Shown here one piece after another: positions 1,493 to 5,550 of a DNA stretch of 5,550 nt. A model generated the notes under the pieces. The model ran no database searches, was not told the origin of the DNA, and saw only the letters and a program-made list of their open reading frames with translations. Position numbers and translations under genes: made by a program. This DNA comes from a virus: positions 1 to 5,550 of IMG/VR virus record IMGVR_UViG_3300045988_001679; one strand, given 5' to 3'. The stretch's first letter is position 1. Every line of letters starts with the position of its first letter.

Positions 1493-1590
1493 CTTTTTTT
1501 CTCCTTTACAGTCTGATGCCGCCTCGCATGGGTTTCTGGCTTAAGTTGATACTCTTTGTTTTGCGTGCCGTCACGTTGAACATTCGTTTG

Positions 1591-1836
1591 TCAGTGCGTA
1601 CTGGCATTTTCTGCCTGTGCTTCATGTGTGTACTCCCTTCTGAGCAGCTCTAGTTCGATGTCATTTGCCCATTTCTTCATAATCCAGATTCGGTCAATGA
1701 TTTTTTTTGCTTCTTCTGAGCTGGAGACTTTTTTTATCATCTTGTATCCAGCTTCTATCTGTTTGTATAGTCTTTCGGCTTCTAGCCTAATATCTTCTTC
1801 GGGCTGGTCTCGTACGTTCCATGTTTTGTGCATCAT
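1591..1836 (-). CDS. Hypothetical protein, 81 aa (ORFan, predicted helical, charged)
   Basis: ATG start with SD AAGGAG 6 nt upstream. Same strand as all the recognisable genes. No recognisable motif. Confidence 0.55.
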   Translation of the reverse strand: MMHKTWNVRDQPEEDIRLEAERLYKQIEAGYKMIKKVSSSEEAKKIIDRIWIMKKWANDIELELLRREYTHEAQAENASTH

Positions 1837-1839
1837 GCT

Positions 1840-1944
1840 TTACTCCTTTTCTTTCAGGATGTGATAGATCTCGTCGAGCTTTTCCAGAACTTTTTTGATC
1901 ATCTGGATTGCTTCCCGCAGATCTTTGACCTTAATCAATGCCAT
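1840..1944 (-). CDS. Micro-ORF, 34 aa (MALIKVKDLREAIQMIKKVLEKLDEIYHILKEKE). Predicted amphipathic helix. Not in the supplied ORF track.
   Basis: ATG 1944 sits 3 nt after the peptidase stop (TAA 1950-1948), with SD AAAGGGGGTG 6 nt upstream. Its own last codons (AAGGAG TAA) form the SD for the next gene (ATG 1836). Fits the coupled gene chain. Confidence 0.45.
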   Translation of the reverse strand: MALIKVKDLREAIQMIKKVLEKLDEIYHILKEKE

Positions 1945-1947
1945 TGG

Positions 1948-2331
1948 TTACACCCCCTTTCTGTATCTATTTTCACGCACATCCACGTGTACGAAGTTGG
2001 TGTATCTGATTATTCCGCCTTGTTCCATGATGCTATCTGCGTACTTTGCAACTTCTTTACTTGAGCGTCCTTTTACTACGATATCGGCGGCCATTCCTTT
2101 GCAATGGTATGAATTTGGTGTTCCACCTACTTTTGTATTCCAGCTCGGTGTGCGGTATCCGCTGTTGATGATGACCGGAGTGTCGAAGTGGTTTCTGATT
2201 GTTTCCAAGATTTCGAGTAGTTTAGGTGCCCACAAGAATTCTTTTGTTTTGTCTTTGCATCTAAACTCTTCAGCTTTGAAGTGTTGCGTTAATCGGTCGT
2301 TGTTTGTTTGGTTTAAGATTGCTGTACTCAT
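1948..2331 (-). CDS. Peptidase M15 family zinc D,D-/L,D-peptidase (Peptidase_M15_3 / VanY-YcbK-like); putative peptidoglycan hydrolase (lysis). 127 aa from ATG 2331. The alternative TTG start at 2412 gives 154 aa.
   Basis: Motifs SGYRTPSWNTKVGGTPNSYHCKGMAADI and FVHVDV match the H...D...H zinc-ligand signature of the M15 family. ATG 2331 is preceded by SD AAGAGGTGG (7-nt spacer) and by the promoter at 2382-2354, which lies inside the longer TTG-initiated ORF. No signal peptide or TM segment. Confidence 0.85.
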   Translation of the reverse strand: MSTAILNQTNNDRLTQHFKAEEFRCKDKTKEFLWAPKLLEILETIRNHFDTPVIINSGYRTPSWNTKVGGTPNSYHCKGMAADIVVKGRSSKEVAKYADSIMEQGGIIRYTNFVHVDVRENRYRKGV

Positions 2332-2353
2332 TTTTTTACCACCTCTTGTTTTT

Positions 2354-2400
2354 TTTATATCATACCCGGCTTGATAAGTCAAGGATTTTTGAAAAAAATT
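2354..2400 (-). promoter_or_regulatory. Sigma70-type promoter on the minus strand: -35 TTGACT (2382-2377), 17-nt spacer, extended -10 TGaTATAAA (2362-2354), AT-rich UP-like tract (2400-2383). Predicted TSS about 2347.
   Basis: Read directly on the minus strand: AATTTTTTTCAAAAATCC TTGACT tatcaagccgggtatga TATAAA aaaaacAAGAGGTGGtaaaaaaATG. Near-consensus hexamers, 17-bp spacing, TGn extended -10, then SD and the ATG of the peptidase. Confidence 0.6.
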
Positions 2401-2433
2401 TTTGACGTTCAAGTCGGATGCCCGCGGCAGGCG

Positions 2434-2536
2434 TTTTCAACATTTTCAACATACTTTTCAACATTTCAACATTGTTAAACTTTAGCATAATAGAGTGTTT
2501 CAACAATTCAACAAGTTTTCAACAAATCTTTCAACA
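2434..2536. repeat. Eight same-orientation copies of TTCAACA (mostly TTTTCAACA) in two clusters of four (2436-2471 and 2499-2536). Start-to-start spacings are 9, 12, 8, 34, 8, 11 and 12 bp, with phased T-tracts. Iteron-like array / curved DNA upstream of the promoter.
   Basis: Copies begin at 2436, 2445, 2457, 2465, 2499, 2507, 2518 and 2530. There is a degenerate ninth copy (TTCAACT) at 2584. TTTTCAACA differs by one base from the DnaA-box consensus TTWTNCACA. Confidence 0.7.
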
Positions 2537-2704: not shown

Positions 2705-2744
2705 AGTAATAATTATCACTTTTCACGTGAGACTAAACAATAAT

Positions 2745-2776
2745 AGCCCAGTACCTTACTTGATAGGTACTGGGCT
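2745..2776 (-). terminator. Perfect 11-bp stem / 10-nt loop hairpin (AGCCCAGTACC ... GGTACTGGGCT), 12 nt downstream of the Rep stop. Likely intrinsic terminator closing the genome-long transcription unit; could also be an ssDNA-form priming/ori hairpin.
   Basis: 2745-2755 is the exact reverse complement of 2766-2776. In mRNA sense it is followed by AUUAUUGUUU (U-rich). It sits between the Rep stop (2791-2789) and the AT-rich non-coding region. Confidence 0.5.
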
Positions 2777-2788
2777 AGGTGACACCAA

Positions 2789-3808
2789 TTATAAAATACC
2801 ACGCTTTTTCGTTTGTTTTTTGGTGACACGTTCTTTTGTCTCTAGGATCGTTTTATAGTCCTTTCCTTCCAGCTGTAGACGCTTCTGCTCTATTGCGTTT
2901 TTCTGCCTGTTTTGTTTGATTCTCCACAGTCTTTGTGGGTTTTCTGCTTCCATCTGCTTTTCGTAGTATCTAGGAATTTGTGCTTGTTTTCCGTTGCTGC
3001 ATTGAATGTATCCTTGTTTCCAAATTTCTGCCTTGTGCTCTTGGTAGTAATGGTCTCCAAGGCCCGGCTTTAGACTCATGCAAGCAAATGGCTTTGTTTG
3101 TCCCAACTCGTAGTATGCATTGGCTTTTTTTCCGTCTATTTCGTACATTTTTTTTGTAACATACCCTGCAACATATCTATAGGTTTCTGGAACGGCTTGC
3201 GCTATCTGTATTTGACCCATGCCCCACAGGTCTTTCAACCACTCGCTGGTGTAGTATCCATTGTGGTGAATTTTGTACAAGTTTTTTAGGTCTGTCGGCT
3301 CCCAACCATATAGTATCATGTGATAGTGCGGTCTCGCTGTTTGTTCTCCGTATTCACCCGCTACAAAATAGCGTAATTTGCTCCTGTAAGCCTTTCTGAG
3401 ACGTTTTAAGAATTTTTGAATATCCTCATATAGCAGAATTTGTACGCTGTCTGGGCGCTTCTCTCCCGGCTTCCATGTGTATTGTACTTTTCGCATGATT
3501 TCGCCTGTCTTTACTATCATGCCTGGTACGTGGTCATCGTCATAAGTTAGTGTGATAAACCATACCTGCTCTTTTGGGTAATCTCTTGCTTCCAGCTCGA
3601 TTCGTGTTGTCCAGTCCTCTCGCTGCCTGATTCTGCATCCGATGCATTGTCCGCATGGTATCAACATAACTTTCGGATTATACATCAAATCTTCATATCT
3701 TAGCTGTTTCCCGCTTAACTGAGAAATGCGGGCGAGTGAATACACCCGCCCGCTCACTTCCTTGTTGTTTGGGTTGTACAGCCTGATTAGTGGCTTGTAA
3801 CAACTCAC
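2789..3808 (-). CDS. VP4 rolling-circle replication initiator (HUH Rep), about 339 aa. Start GTG 3808-3806 overlaps the VP2 stop (GTGA). The track version extended to 3979 is less likely.
   Basis: HUH endonuclease motifs in order: WFITLTYDD (motif I), [10 protein letters not shown] (motif II, HxH), [11 protein letters not shown] (motif III, catalytic Tyr). N-terminal Cys cluster SCYKPL...[10 protein letters not shown]. Excellent SD AGGAGGAGGAAG plus a 6-nt A spacer before GTG 3808. The 3979 GTG has no RBS, and the first in-frame ATG is at 3685. Confidence 0.9.
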
Positions 3809-4650
3809 TTTTTTCTTCCTCCTCCTGCGTGGAATTTTCCTCCGCCCGCGTTGAATGGAATTGTTTTTTCTGTATCTTCCATCTGTTCGTATGTTTTTAG
3901 CAGGTCTTTTGTTAGCTCGTATGGGCTTGTATAGCCTTTTGACATTTGGGTTCCTACGGCTTCGGAGAGCTGATACCACGTTGATTTTGCAATGCTTTTA
4001 TTGTAGTAGCTGTTTGGCACGTTGCCGCTTAGCGCAGATACTCCCAGAGCGCTTGATGTTGGCATTCCCATGCTTGCGCCTGTGATTGTTGCACCTGCAC
4101 CTCCCGGTGTGCTTGCTCCGCCCTGTGCGTATGCCAAAATCGGGTTTAGTCCTGCTTTTCGCATATCTTCTACGGCTCTTTGATATGCTGTGTTGCTCAT
4201 TCTTTCTTGGAAATTGCGGTTTGCTAGCGCTTCTGCGCTGTTGTATTGCATTGCGGCGTTTTGTTCGATGTGGTTGTAAATACCCTGTTGGATTGCCCCC
4301 AGCGTGTTATAGCCCATCTGCATGAGCATGTTTTGTCGGTTTGTTTTGCTTTGGAATGCGTTTTGCCCGCCCTGCCAGTTGTAGTATTGACTGAGATATT
4401 TCATTATCTGTTCGTCATTCGTGCCGCCTTCTGCAACGCTTAGTGATGTTCCACCGCCCTTTCCTGTGCTTACGTTGCTTCCTTGGCTGATGTTTTCGCT
4501 TTTTTGGCCGTACATTGATGATAGTCCACCGCCCAGCAGTTGCATCGCTCCGGTTATGACTGCTGGGTTCTGTGCTAACCATGCTCCTGCTTTGGCTGCT
4601 CCACTTGCAAGCATTGCTCCTAGTCCTGCCATTTTAAATATAGCCCGCAT
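3805..4650 (-). CDS. VP2 minor capsid / DNA pilot protein (281 aa)
   Basis: Gly/Ala/Gln-rich protein with the conserved motif [22 protein letters not shown] typical of gokushovirus VP2. Located directly downstream of VP1. Strong SD AAGGAGGAA lies 12 nt before ATG 4650, 22 nt after the VP1 stop. C-terminal [13 protein letters not shown]. Confidence 0.85.
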
Positions 4651-4672: not shown

Positions 4673-5550
4673 TTACAGTTTTTCCAGACCCGGCACGCTG
4701 TACAGCGGCATGCAGCGAGTGGTTTTGTTCATTACCCTGATTGCCCCGAAGAACTGCGGTTCGTTCTGGACGATTAAAGTTCTTGCGATTTCTGTTTTGT
4801 CCTCGTTCATCCACTCTTGGCTCAGTGTCGGCACGGTGCTGTAGTTGTCCGCATAGTGCCAGAAGTCTAGCGTGCCTTCTGCATTGCTCCGCATTTTACC
4901 GCTTACCCGGTTAGGCTTCATTCGGTAGTCTGCCCAGGCTTCCTGGTAGCCGAACGTTTCATTATCTGTGCTTGTGCCGGTCAGCATGATTTCTTTCTTT
5001 TTGACAGGCTGTTCGCCCAGATTTGCAAACTGCGGGAAGTAGTAGTCCAGTCTGTCACTGCGGCTCCAGAATCGTTCCAAGCCTTGCTGATAGCTGTGAT
5101 TATGGCGAACACACATAACACCGATAACAAACCCGTGTTCCTCAAAGCTTTTTGTGAAGCTGCTTTCGTTAATCGGTGTGACAGACATTGCACCGGTTTC
5201 ACCGATAGGCGTATCGTCTGCGGTCTGCTGCCCGCTGGTCTGTACGATTTGGTTGATGTTTACATGATAGCGTCCGCCACCCAGATACTCCGGCACCTGA
5301 ACCGTTTTATCGCTGATGCTTACGCCAAACAGTGTTCGTACCTGTTCACGGTATCGGCTGCCTCCACGGGCCAGTGCTTCATAGTAGTGCTGAACTGCAA
5401 ATGCCTGACGCAGCTGGTTGATTGTTGCGGCTTCGATTCCCGTTAGGTCTGCTCCCAGATGTCCGTTTTTGATTCCGTCATTGAACGATATCCCGGGTTT
5501 GGTTGTTTCTCCGGGTGATGACACGCTTGTTGCATTGAAGTTTGCCCCAA
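4673..5550 (-). CDS. Major capsid protein VP1, C-terminal part (stop TAA at 4675-4673). Bases 5452-5550 duplicate 1-99. The full gene is 1647 nt / 548 aa across the junction.
   Basis: Track ORF 4673..5524 (the GTG 'start' is an internal Val codon). Conserved gokushovirus VP1 C-terminal blocks: [107 protein letters not shown]. Confidence 0.93.
5452..5550. repeat. Second copy of the terminal redundancy (same bases as 1-99)
   Basis: See the 1-99 feature. Confidence 0.9.

Follow-up and report, generated by a model that had tools for sequence, protein, structure and literature searches.

The lysis protein of phiX174, protein E, inhibits MraY, and to our knowledge every small-phage lysis protein whose mechanism has been characterised targets precursor synthesis. 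A review describes ssDNA phages as lysing their hosts by non-enzymatic single-gene lysis proteins (PMC10707117). Roux et al. (2012) reported M15_3 peptidase genes in five gut Gokushovirinae and six Alpavirinae, showed that these genes had been acquired horizontally with an affinity to Faecalibacterium, possibly from Firmicutes, and proposed an endolysin role for the encoded peptidases (PMC3394797). Kirchberger et al. place peptidases among the lysis-associated accessory genes of microviruses, and the marine Occultatumvirinae carry M15 peptidases as well. The presence of an M15_3 peptidase in gut gokushoviruses is already known. Among characterised enzymes, the endolysin LysPM1 of Proteus phage Homer, 116 aa in length, consists of a single M15_3 domain and has lytic activity in vitro; it lyses permeabilised cells, loses its activity with EDTA and regains part of it with Zn2+ or Ca2+ (PMC13461873). 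The microvirus Ebor, a member of the Tainavirinae that infects Rhodobacter, encodes an accessory peptidoglycan hydrolase, Gp7, that has been verified by zymogram (PMC11980548).

We analysed a peptidase gene of this kind in a 5550-nt stretch of viral DNA, referred to below as the window. A 99-bp direct repeat at both ends of the window indicates a circular genome of ~5451 nt. Every recognisable gene is encoded on the minus strand, in the order VP1, VP2, VP4, an intergenic region of ~460 nt, the peptidase, three small genes (o34, o81 and o39), VP5 and VP3. VP1, the major capsid gene, spans the junction (Phage_F, 8e-79); VP2, the pilot protein gene, lies at 3805..4650 (phrog_8742); VP4, the Rep gene (REP_ORF2-G2P), probably starts at a GTG at 3808 that overlaps the VP2 TGA stop; and VP5 and the scaffold gene VP3 match Phage_ORF5 and Chlamy_scaf, respectively. 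The genome has the size (a circle of ~4.5-6 kb) and the VP1-VP5 set of gokushovirus-type microviruses, lacks spike and external scaffold genes, and is 71-75% identical in nucleotide sequence to GenBank gokushoviruses from human, pig and monkey faeces. As had been proposed, it is a gokushovirus without a protein-E-like gene. In the nearest GenBank genomes, the gene in the same slot is labelled 'peptidase M15' (KX513868, Human gut gokushovirus) or 'similar to peptidase' (MG945781), and these two genomes share with the window the Pfam family, the virus group and the VP4-VP5 location of the gene. Nothing essential sets the window apart from the M15_3 peptidases of gut Gokushovirinae and Alpavirinae, of which it is another member.

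The peptidase had originally been placed at 1948-2412, a minus-strand open reading frame of 154 aa that begins with TTG. We rejected the TTG at 2412 in favour of the ATG at 2331, because a Shine-Dalgarno sequence (AAGAGGTGG, 2339..2347, minus strand) lies 8 nt before this ATG, because homologs are 127-131 aa long (hundreds of them, on contigs of ~5.5 kb), and because a conserved promoter (2354-2382) falls within the putative extension. GAGG or GGAG sites are equivalently placed 5' of the gene in relatives. The coding sequence is accordingly predicted to be 1948..2331, encoding 127 aa followed by a TAA stop, and the strong ribosome binding site of the original prediction is retained as AAGAGGTGG, 8 nt ahead of the relocated start.

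The product of the open reading frame matches Pfam Peptidase_M15_3 over profile positions 2-108 of 108 with 89.6 bits (cutoff 23.2, E 1.8e-25), confirming by HMM search that it is an M15 zinc peptidase, and it matches PHROG 894, 'endolysin', with an E value of 6.4e-37. Peptidase_M15_2/DUF882 also scores above its cutoff (30.9 bits, cutoff 27), 59 bits below M15_3. The only other M15 profile matched in the Pfam search, Peptidase_M15_4 ('D-alanyl-D-alanine carboxypeptidase'), remains under its cutoff (13.8 bits against 25, E 0.09), and VanY is not among the listed Pfam matches of the open reading frame. Periplasmic YcbK carries an N-terminal export signal of the Tat type; the window peptidase has a better match than DUF882, and its N-terminus has neither a hydrophobic nor a twin-arginine segment, so that it differs from YcbK/MepK. 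Thus, of an earlier description as VanY/YcbK-type, the VanY (M15B) part does not hold, and the likeness to YcbK is only the weak M15_2 match. The peptidase belongs to MEROPS M15A (Peptidase_M15_3), whose type enzyme is the DD-peptidase of Streptomyces albus G (PDB 1LBU).

Each of the motifs on which the family had first been recognised, SGYR, GG, SYHCKGMAADI and HVDV, is found in the protein. The SxHxxGxAxD motif corresponds to S74-H76-G79-A81-D83 and the (W/F)xH motif to F113-x-H115, placing the zinc ligand codons on the minus strand at 2106..2104 (H76, CAT), 2085..2083 (D83, GAT) and 1989..1987 (H115, CAC); R60, F113 and D117 are further active-site motif residues. Sequence and profile searches of the PDB returned a sole match, 1LBU, the zinc DD-peptidase of Streptomyces albus, in an alignment that sets SGYR...SYHCKGMAAD against GGFR...SRHMYGHAAD. 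In this alignment, R60 corresponds to R138, H76 to H154 and D83 to D161 of 1LBU, whose zinc ligands we take to be H154, D161 and H197. The numbering used here combines the alignment and these assumed ligands with R138, Y189 and H195, the residues of 1LBU that are named in the LysPM1 study (PMC13461873). When AF2 was run on a shallow alignment, the active-site loop came out disordered (pLDDT 77.5), and the model was rebuilt from a broader alignment. By global fit, its LAS-type fold is superimposable on 1LBU; the alignments and this fit together suggest that the three zinc ligands would superimpose as well. With the Pfam match, these comparisons point away from both outcomes that would have overturned the assignment, the lack of any M15 match and zinc ligands that could not be superimposed on known M15 structures. 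1LBU itself differs in being secreted, in having an extra N-terminal domain resembling a peptidoglycan-binding domain, and in its general base H195, which is replaced by F113 in the window peptidase, as in LysPM1.

Conservation among microviral copies agrees in placing constraint on the active site. The residues S57, R60, S74, H76, G79, A81, D83, Y110, H115 and D117 are the same in each of 56 microviral copies; position 113 is F in all of them except one, which has W. The median pairwise dN/dS of the microviral copies is ~0.23, showing that the peptidase is under purifying selection.

We next compared the peptidase with enzymes of tailed phages. The set of motifs described for LysPM1, namely a zinc triad, an Arg, (W/F)xH and an Asp two residues past the last His (PMC13461873), is also the set of the window peptidase. 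LysPM1 and the M15A endolysins of Burkholderia phage ST79 and Shewanella phage Spp001 (PMC13461873) come from tailed dsDNA phages of Gram-negative bacteria, and the enterobacterial enzymes have CKCGCG where the window peptidase has CKDKTKE. BLASTP aligns the peptidase with the M15-family peptidase of Proteus phage PM 116 at 40% identity (E 2e-24). In Proteus phage BigMira, a homolog annotated as an endolysin lies beside two annotated holins, whereas the window has no holin. Ebor Gp7 belongs to another virus subfamily and apparently to another enzyme family (HHpred match 6SSC). A role in lysis is supported by the PHROG endolysin family, the motifs shared with LysPM1, the BigMira cassette and the hydrolase activity of Ebor Gp7. 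We consider it likely that the endolysin of this gut gokushovirus is the product of this gene, a signal-less, cytoplasmic M15A murein peptidase. As judged from homology and genomic context, this horizontally acquired single-domain enzyme would hydrolyse peptide bonds of the host murein at the end of infection.

The resemblance to 1LBU also brings up a different target. A cytoplasmic peptidase could act as an enzymatic 'amurin' that breaks down murein precursors, cleaving, for instance, the terminal D-Ala off UDP-MurNAc-pentapeptide or lipid II in the manner of VanX or VanY. With their wall synthesis blocked, growing cells would lyse without any export of the enzyme, an outcome analogous to that of phiX174 E. 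The closest solved structure is indeed a D-Ala-D-Ala carboxypeptidase, and Arg60, which is invariant, is equivalent to Arg138 of 1LBU, the residue that binds the carboxylate of the substrate. Such a mode of action would also accord with the absence of an export route across the clade, described below, and with the review in which characterised small-phage lysis proteins all target precursor synthesis (PMC10707117). However, during infection by dsDNA phages, homologs with 40-45% identity build up in the cytoplasm and await holins; these homologs have been over-produced recombinantly and purified, and thus evidently lack acute toxicity; and the active site of the microviral enzyme is indistinguishable from that of the dsDNA-phage homologs. 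We therefore regard precursor destruction as distinctly unlikely. In relation to phiX174 E, the peptidase is alike in being probably the only lysis-related gene of a tiny ssDNA phage and differs in being a soluble hydrolase without a transmembrane (TM) segment, whereas E is a small membrane protein.

The gene is widespread. A tblastn search finds it in 878 phage records, of which well over 150 are microvirus records, and close homologs form 636 clusters in a large protein collection. Identity to the window peptidase is 47-67% for GenBank copies and reaches 92% for metagenomic copies. Within the gut clade, the peptidase is present in every locus that has an intact VP4-VP5 interval, and a search for close peptidase-less relatives with VP5 as bait returned only loci truncated at contig ends. 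The original prediction had called such peptidases uncommon in microviruses, which understates the matter for a gene that was published in 2012, is annotated in GenBank and is carried by all clade members with an intact interval. What appears to be new here, from the comparison of related loci, is the clade-wide lack of an accompanying TM protein and the conservation of the promoter.

This promoter is of the sigma-70/sigma-A type and occupies 2354..2382 on the minus strand, with a -35 element TTGACT (2382-2377), a 17-nt spacer and a -10 element TATAAA (2359-2354) that is extended by a TG at 2362-2361. Most of 51 relatives have TTGAC[AT]-17-(TGn)TATAAT-like elements approximately 48-57 nt 5' of the peptidase ATG; the spacer sequences vary among them while the architecture stays. 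A simple promoter and terminator scan showed no enrichment and missed this promoter, because position 6 of its -10 element is A. In the only large intergenic region, a near-consensus promoter thus precedes the peptidase, which is predicted to be the first cistron, as the original prediction held, now with support from most of the 51 relatives. Further 5' lies an array of TGTTGAA(A) with eight exact repeats in two clusters of four (2436..2536, minus strand). TGTTGAA occurs nine times in the window against 1.1 expected, a count reached in none of 200 shuffles, and close relatives have 7-9 copies, on the coding strand throughout. Six copies are found in L100, a relative without the peptidase, and the array is a feature of the intergenic region of the lineage that is not specific to the peptidase. 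A GC-rich segment of the intergenic region was compared by eye with XerCD dif sites, and the likeness was judged unconvincing.

At the other side of the intergenic region, directly after the VP4 stop, we observed a perfect stem-loop with a 13-bp stem and the loop ATCAAGTA (2744..2777, minus strand), which is a terminator-like match. It is stable in an ssDNA fold and is conserved throughout the clade, where one pair of the stem has changed in a compensatory manner (C.G, A.T or T.A). An Rfam search found nothing. This putative element may mark the end of a genome-length transcription unit, or alternatively a Rep origin. Given the promoter before the peptidase and the covarying stem-loop after VP4, the genome looks like one transcription unit that starts at the peptidase.

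We looked for export signals and for a membrane partner. The N-terminus of the peptidase is hydrophilic (MSTAILNQTNNDRLTQHF / MSTAILNQTNNDRL...), and the first 40 residues of 57 family members have a maximum KD15 of 1.24 and a median of 0.21. No signal peptide or SAR segment is present in the peptidase, which sets it apart from secreted and SAR endolysins, and it has no TM segment; longer N-terminal variants in databases proved to be start-calling artefacts and are not hydrophobic. As a soluble 127-aa hydrolase fold without a TM segment, it also differs from single-gene lysis proteins of the phiX174 E type. A scan for TM open reading frames on the coding strand recovered the annotated 58-aa TM protein of Dulem virus 189 as a positive control and found no conserved one in 60 related loci, where the few hits were frame artefacts. 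Thus, in the window and the 60 relatives the enzyme is present without the conserved TM open reading frame of a holin-endolysin cassette, and the earlier observation that there is no signal peptide, TM helix or adjacent holin-like gene extends from the window to 56-60 relatives. Dulem virus 189 is itself a peptidase-bearing microvirus with another gene order, in which the 58-aa TM open reading frame is a holin-like candidate, and Ebor encodes a 45-aa membrane protein (Gp1), for which the window has no counterpart. Since both of these viruses have a small TM protein, its lack in the window is unusual even among microviruses.

Among all coding-strand frames of the window, the only TM-like segment is a 73-aa open reading frame in the +1 frame inside VP1 (4981..5202, minus strand; KD19 1.93), which lies outside the proposed system and had been named as a candidate route to the murein. 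If translated, this frame (5202..4981) could lesion the membrane as an overprinted holin, in an arrangement like that of E within D of phiX174, and a TM-bearing open reading frame is kept at this place in a few of the closest relatives (L006, L007, L016 and L034). Among 32 codon-aligned relatives that keep the peptidase, however, stops interrupt the frame, leaving only five open codons in many of them, the start codon varies, and the hydrophobic stretch is frequently missing. The frame has a GTG start with no obvious Shine-Dalgarno sequence upstream, and its hydrophobic string is an off-frame reading of a conserved VP1 segment. We rejected it as the holin, since stops break the frame in most relatives, and consider this explanation extremely unlikely. 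A second TM-like open reading frame, at the VP4 end and hairpin (CHLAQYLSSKVLGIIILIA, nine relatives), was likewise discarded as an artefact of the conserved hairpin and an A/T-rich run; the window copy is not hydrophobic. Taken together, the searches argue that a canonical holin is not the means by which the peptidase would pass the membrane.

The small genes directly downstream had also been suggested as an export route. The first, o34 (1840..1944, minus strand), encodes a 34-aa, heptad-patterned amphipathic helix that is conserved in the clade; o81 (1591..1836) encodes an 81-aa soluble helical protein, a core gene product of the lineage that is conserved in relatives; and o39 (1506..1625) encodes a highly basic 39-aa protein (net charge +11; phrog_10695) that is kept at 50-97% identity among relatives and is probably a DNA-binding or packaging protein. 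Neither o34 nor o81 matches a Pfam or PHROG family, o81 has no hydrophobic segment, and the amphipathicity (muH) is 0.72 for o34 and 0.63 for o81. The final codons of the peptidase double as the Shine-Dalgarno sequence of o34 (AAGGGGGTG); in nearly all relatives the peptidase end AAG GGG GTG TAA serves in this way, with a gap of 2-4 nt. The peptidase is predicted to be translationally coupled to the downstream small genes.

This coupling invites the idea that o34, o81 or both act as an export helper, for which the chaperone-like Gp1 of mycobacteriophage Ms6, which delivers LysA to Sec, is a precedent (PMC6116005). Both proteins are small, helical and amphipathic, and a natural in-frame fusion of peptidase and o34 exists (P0036). 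This fusion is the sole one among 34 aligned clusters. In the window, o34 is in frame with the peptidase, with TAA-CCA alone between them, but the frame relation varies among relatives (0 in 31, 2 in 16 and 1 in 4), and programmed readthrough to a fusion protein was rejected on these grounds. The genes also occur without each other. All three small genes are kept in MG945382 (L100), the peptidase-less relative, which has an unrelated 60-aa open reading frame in the peptidase slot and a 33-aa TM open reading frame elsewhere; o34 and o81 are absent from the most distant peptidase-bearing subclade, L054-L059. Ms6, moreover, still requires a holin (PMC6116005). The retention of o34, o81 and o39 in MG945382 suggests that they have another primary role, and the lack of a TM segment further weakens the case for o34 and o81 as partners dedicated to export of the peptidase. 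We consider a helper role of these proteins very unlikely.

For the endolysin that we favour, the position of the gene as first cistron after the promoter, its strong Shine-Dalgarno sequence and its coupling to the small genes suggest that the folded, signal-less enzyme would be synthesised as a cytoplasmic protein as soon as gene expression begins. Our best guess is that another virus protein that accumulates late would then lesion or depolarise the membrane and thereby give the enzyme access to the murein. The only weakly hydrophobic conserved segment is the Gly/Ala-rich N-terminus of VP2 (KD19 1.13), and VP2 as the source of the lesion is a guess. Alternatively, and also as a guess, the route could be host-assisted, as for signal-less endolysins of Gram-positive systems. 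It counts against the endolysin reading in general that no means is known by which a cytoplasmic endolysin encoded by the first cistron could, in the absence of a holin, gain access to murein or time lysis.

Three lines of indirect evidence favour Firmicutes or Clostridia over Bacteroidota or Enterobacteria as the host. Strong Shine-Dalgarno sequences of the GGAGG type precede every gene, and the extended -10 promoters are of the sigma-A type, not of the Bacteroidota type. The closest VP1 relatives on large bacterial contigs belong to MAGs of Lachnospiraceae, Oscillospiraceae, Peptostreptococcaceae and other Clostridia; one of these relatives, on a 317-kb contig beside an alanyl-tRNA synthetase-like gene, is clearly a prophage. 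In VP1, these Clostridia prophages are only ~45% identical, and they do not encode the peptidase. Outside the microviruses, the closest homologs of the peptidase in an exhaustive search have 49-55% identity and are modular proteins in which M15_3 is accompanied by SH3_3, PG_binding_1, GH25, Amidase_2 or dockerin domains, one of them from a Eubacteriaceae MAG; the enzymes of Gram-negative phages are 40-46% identical. From the promoter and Shine-Dalgarno type, the Clostridia prophage relatives and the modular homologs of Gram-positive style, the host is probably a Firmicute of the Clostridia type. The affinity to modular homologs agrees with the findings of Roux et al. (PMC3394797). Lysins that lack a wall-binding module are found more typically in phages of Gram-negative bacteria (PMC13461873), and the single-domain lysin of the window counts in this respect against a Gram-positive host. 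A 5.8-kb peptidase-bearing contig binned with Prevotella was not trusted as host evidence.

A thick Gram-positive wall would make an enzyme especially useful at entry, and the peptidase could instead be a low-copy, virion-borne enzyme that digests the wall during DNA delivery and has no role in release. Tailed phages of Gram-positive bacteria commonly need virion-associated lysins (PMC6116005). Traces of Ebor Gp7, the only biochemically verified microviral peptidoglycan hydrolase, were found in purified virions by LC-MS/MS (PMC11980548), and an entry function would remove the need for a holin. On the other hand, the trace signal in Ebor may be contamination, no place for an enzyme of 14 kDa is known in the T=1 capsid of gokushoviruses, close homologs are endolysins in lysis cassettes, and the virus would still be left without a lysis function. 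We consider an entry enzyme unlikely.

We also considered a broader proposition, in which the whole clade, probably infecting Gram-positive Clostridia, lyses its hosts by a signal-less M15A peptidase without a holin, either through attack on precursors or with VP2, o34 or o81 doubling as the lesion factor. This proposition is unlikely on present evidence. If it is true, precursor attack or a doubling lesion factor would be a lysis strategy undescribed for any phage.

The gene itself is no discovery. Its distribution nonetheless means that what appears to be a true murein hydrolase is encoded throughout a group of gut gokushoviruses that is large and abundant, contrary to the picture of ssDNA phage lysis given in review (PMC10707117). 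The window is a clean and complete example, in which the enzyme is conserved, under purifying selection, proximal to the predicted promoter and without a holin. The hints of a Firmicutes host matter because microviruses of Gram-positive bacteria have so far barely been documented. The holin-less state is clade-wide and experimentally tractable, comprising a 127-aa protein and six candidate partner open reading frames, and it sharpens a question that has stood since 2012, namely how gokushoviruses lyse their hosts and how a cytoplasmic lysin may act without a holin.

The window carries a direct repeat of 99 bp at its two ends (1-99 and 5452-5550), and because of this terminal repeat we conclude that it is a complete genome, circularly permuted and approximately 5451 nt long. 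The gene for the 548-aa major capsid protein, VP1, spans the junction of the window ends. The gene for VP4, the Rep protein, probably starts at GTG 3808, which has GGAGGAGGAAG upstream and overlaps the stop codon of the pilot protein gene, VP2, as GTGA (3805-3808). With this start, VP4 would probably be approximately 339 aa long, as compared with 396 aa in the listed ORF.

Directly 3' of the VP4 stop codon, the minus strand holds a perfect 13-bp stem-loop (2744-2777) whose loop, ATCAAGTA, is invariant among relatives, while one stem pair covaries (C.G, A.T or T.A). The complement of the loop, ACTTGATA, is presumably similar to the core of the phiX174 origin. This stem-loop could be a Rep nicking origin, either instead of a terminator or in addition to one. 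The intergenic region that follows is AT-rich except for a GC-rich segment of alternating purines and pyrimidines, CGCGCACACACGTACACGCG...GCGCACGCGTGCGCACG, at approximately 2640-2690. Similar segments are also present in MG945382, a related gokushovirus, and in the related locus L035, and the segment might be a complementary-strand origin. Upstream of the promoter, a minus-strand array of eight exact TGTTGAA(A) repeats is arranged in two clusters of four (2436-2536). The whole window has 9 copies of this motif, as compared with 1.1 expected, and relatives have 2-9 copies, with 6 in MG945382, which lacks the peptidase; with the exception of L044, these copies lie on the coding strand throughout. 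The array is iteron-like and is possibly a binding site for Rep or a regulator.

Several related loci (L101-L109) are gokushovirus prophages on large contigs from Clostridia MAGs (Lachnospiraceae, Oscillospiraceae and Peptostreptococcaceae). The L103 prophage occupies 5850-10379 of a 317-kb contig, with membrane-protein ORFs upstream and, downstream, ORFs of 872 aa and 159 aa that we take by eye to be alanyl-tRNA synthetase and ruvX-like, respectively. There is so far little documentation of microviruses that infect Gram-positive bacteria.

The peptidase gene and o34, the small conserved ORF downstream of it, are closely coupled. The peptidase stop codon (TAA, 1950-1948) and the o34 start codon (ATG, 1944) share a reading frame, with one codon between them (1942-1953), and the last codons of the peptidase gene make the o34 Shine-Dalgarno sequence. 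A natural fusion of the two is found in one metagenomic protein, P0036 (167 aa).

A hydrophobic 73-aa ORF on the minus strand (4981-5202) is a conserved segment of VP1 read off-frame. It is kept by a few of the closest relatives, and most relatives do not keep it. A chance ORF, rather than a young overprinted gene, is the most likely reading. In Dulem virus 189 (PP511348), whose peptidase is 52% identical to that of the window but whose gene order differs, an annotated 58-aa hypothetical protein with a TM helix at its N-terminus and a charged C-terminus is encoded directly after VP2 (2607-2783). This protein is a holin-like candidate, whereas the window's clade has no counterpart. In MG945382, the peptidase slot holds an unrelated 60-aa ORF (1581-1763), and a strongly hydrophobic 33-aa ORF (2290-2391) lies between o39, another small conserved ORF, and VP5. 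Likewise, the related locus L039 has a hydrophobic 29-aa ORF in the same place. These MG945382 and L039 ORFs may be other ways in which members of the lineage achieve lysis.
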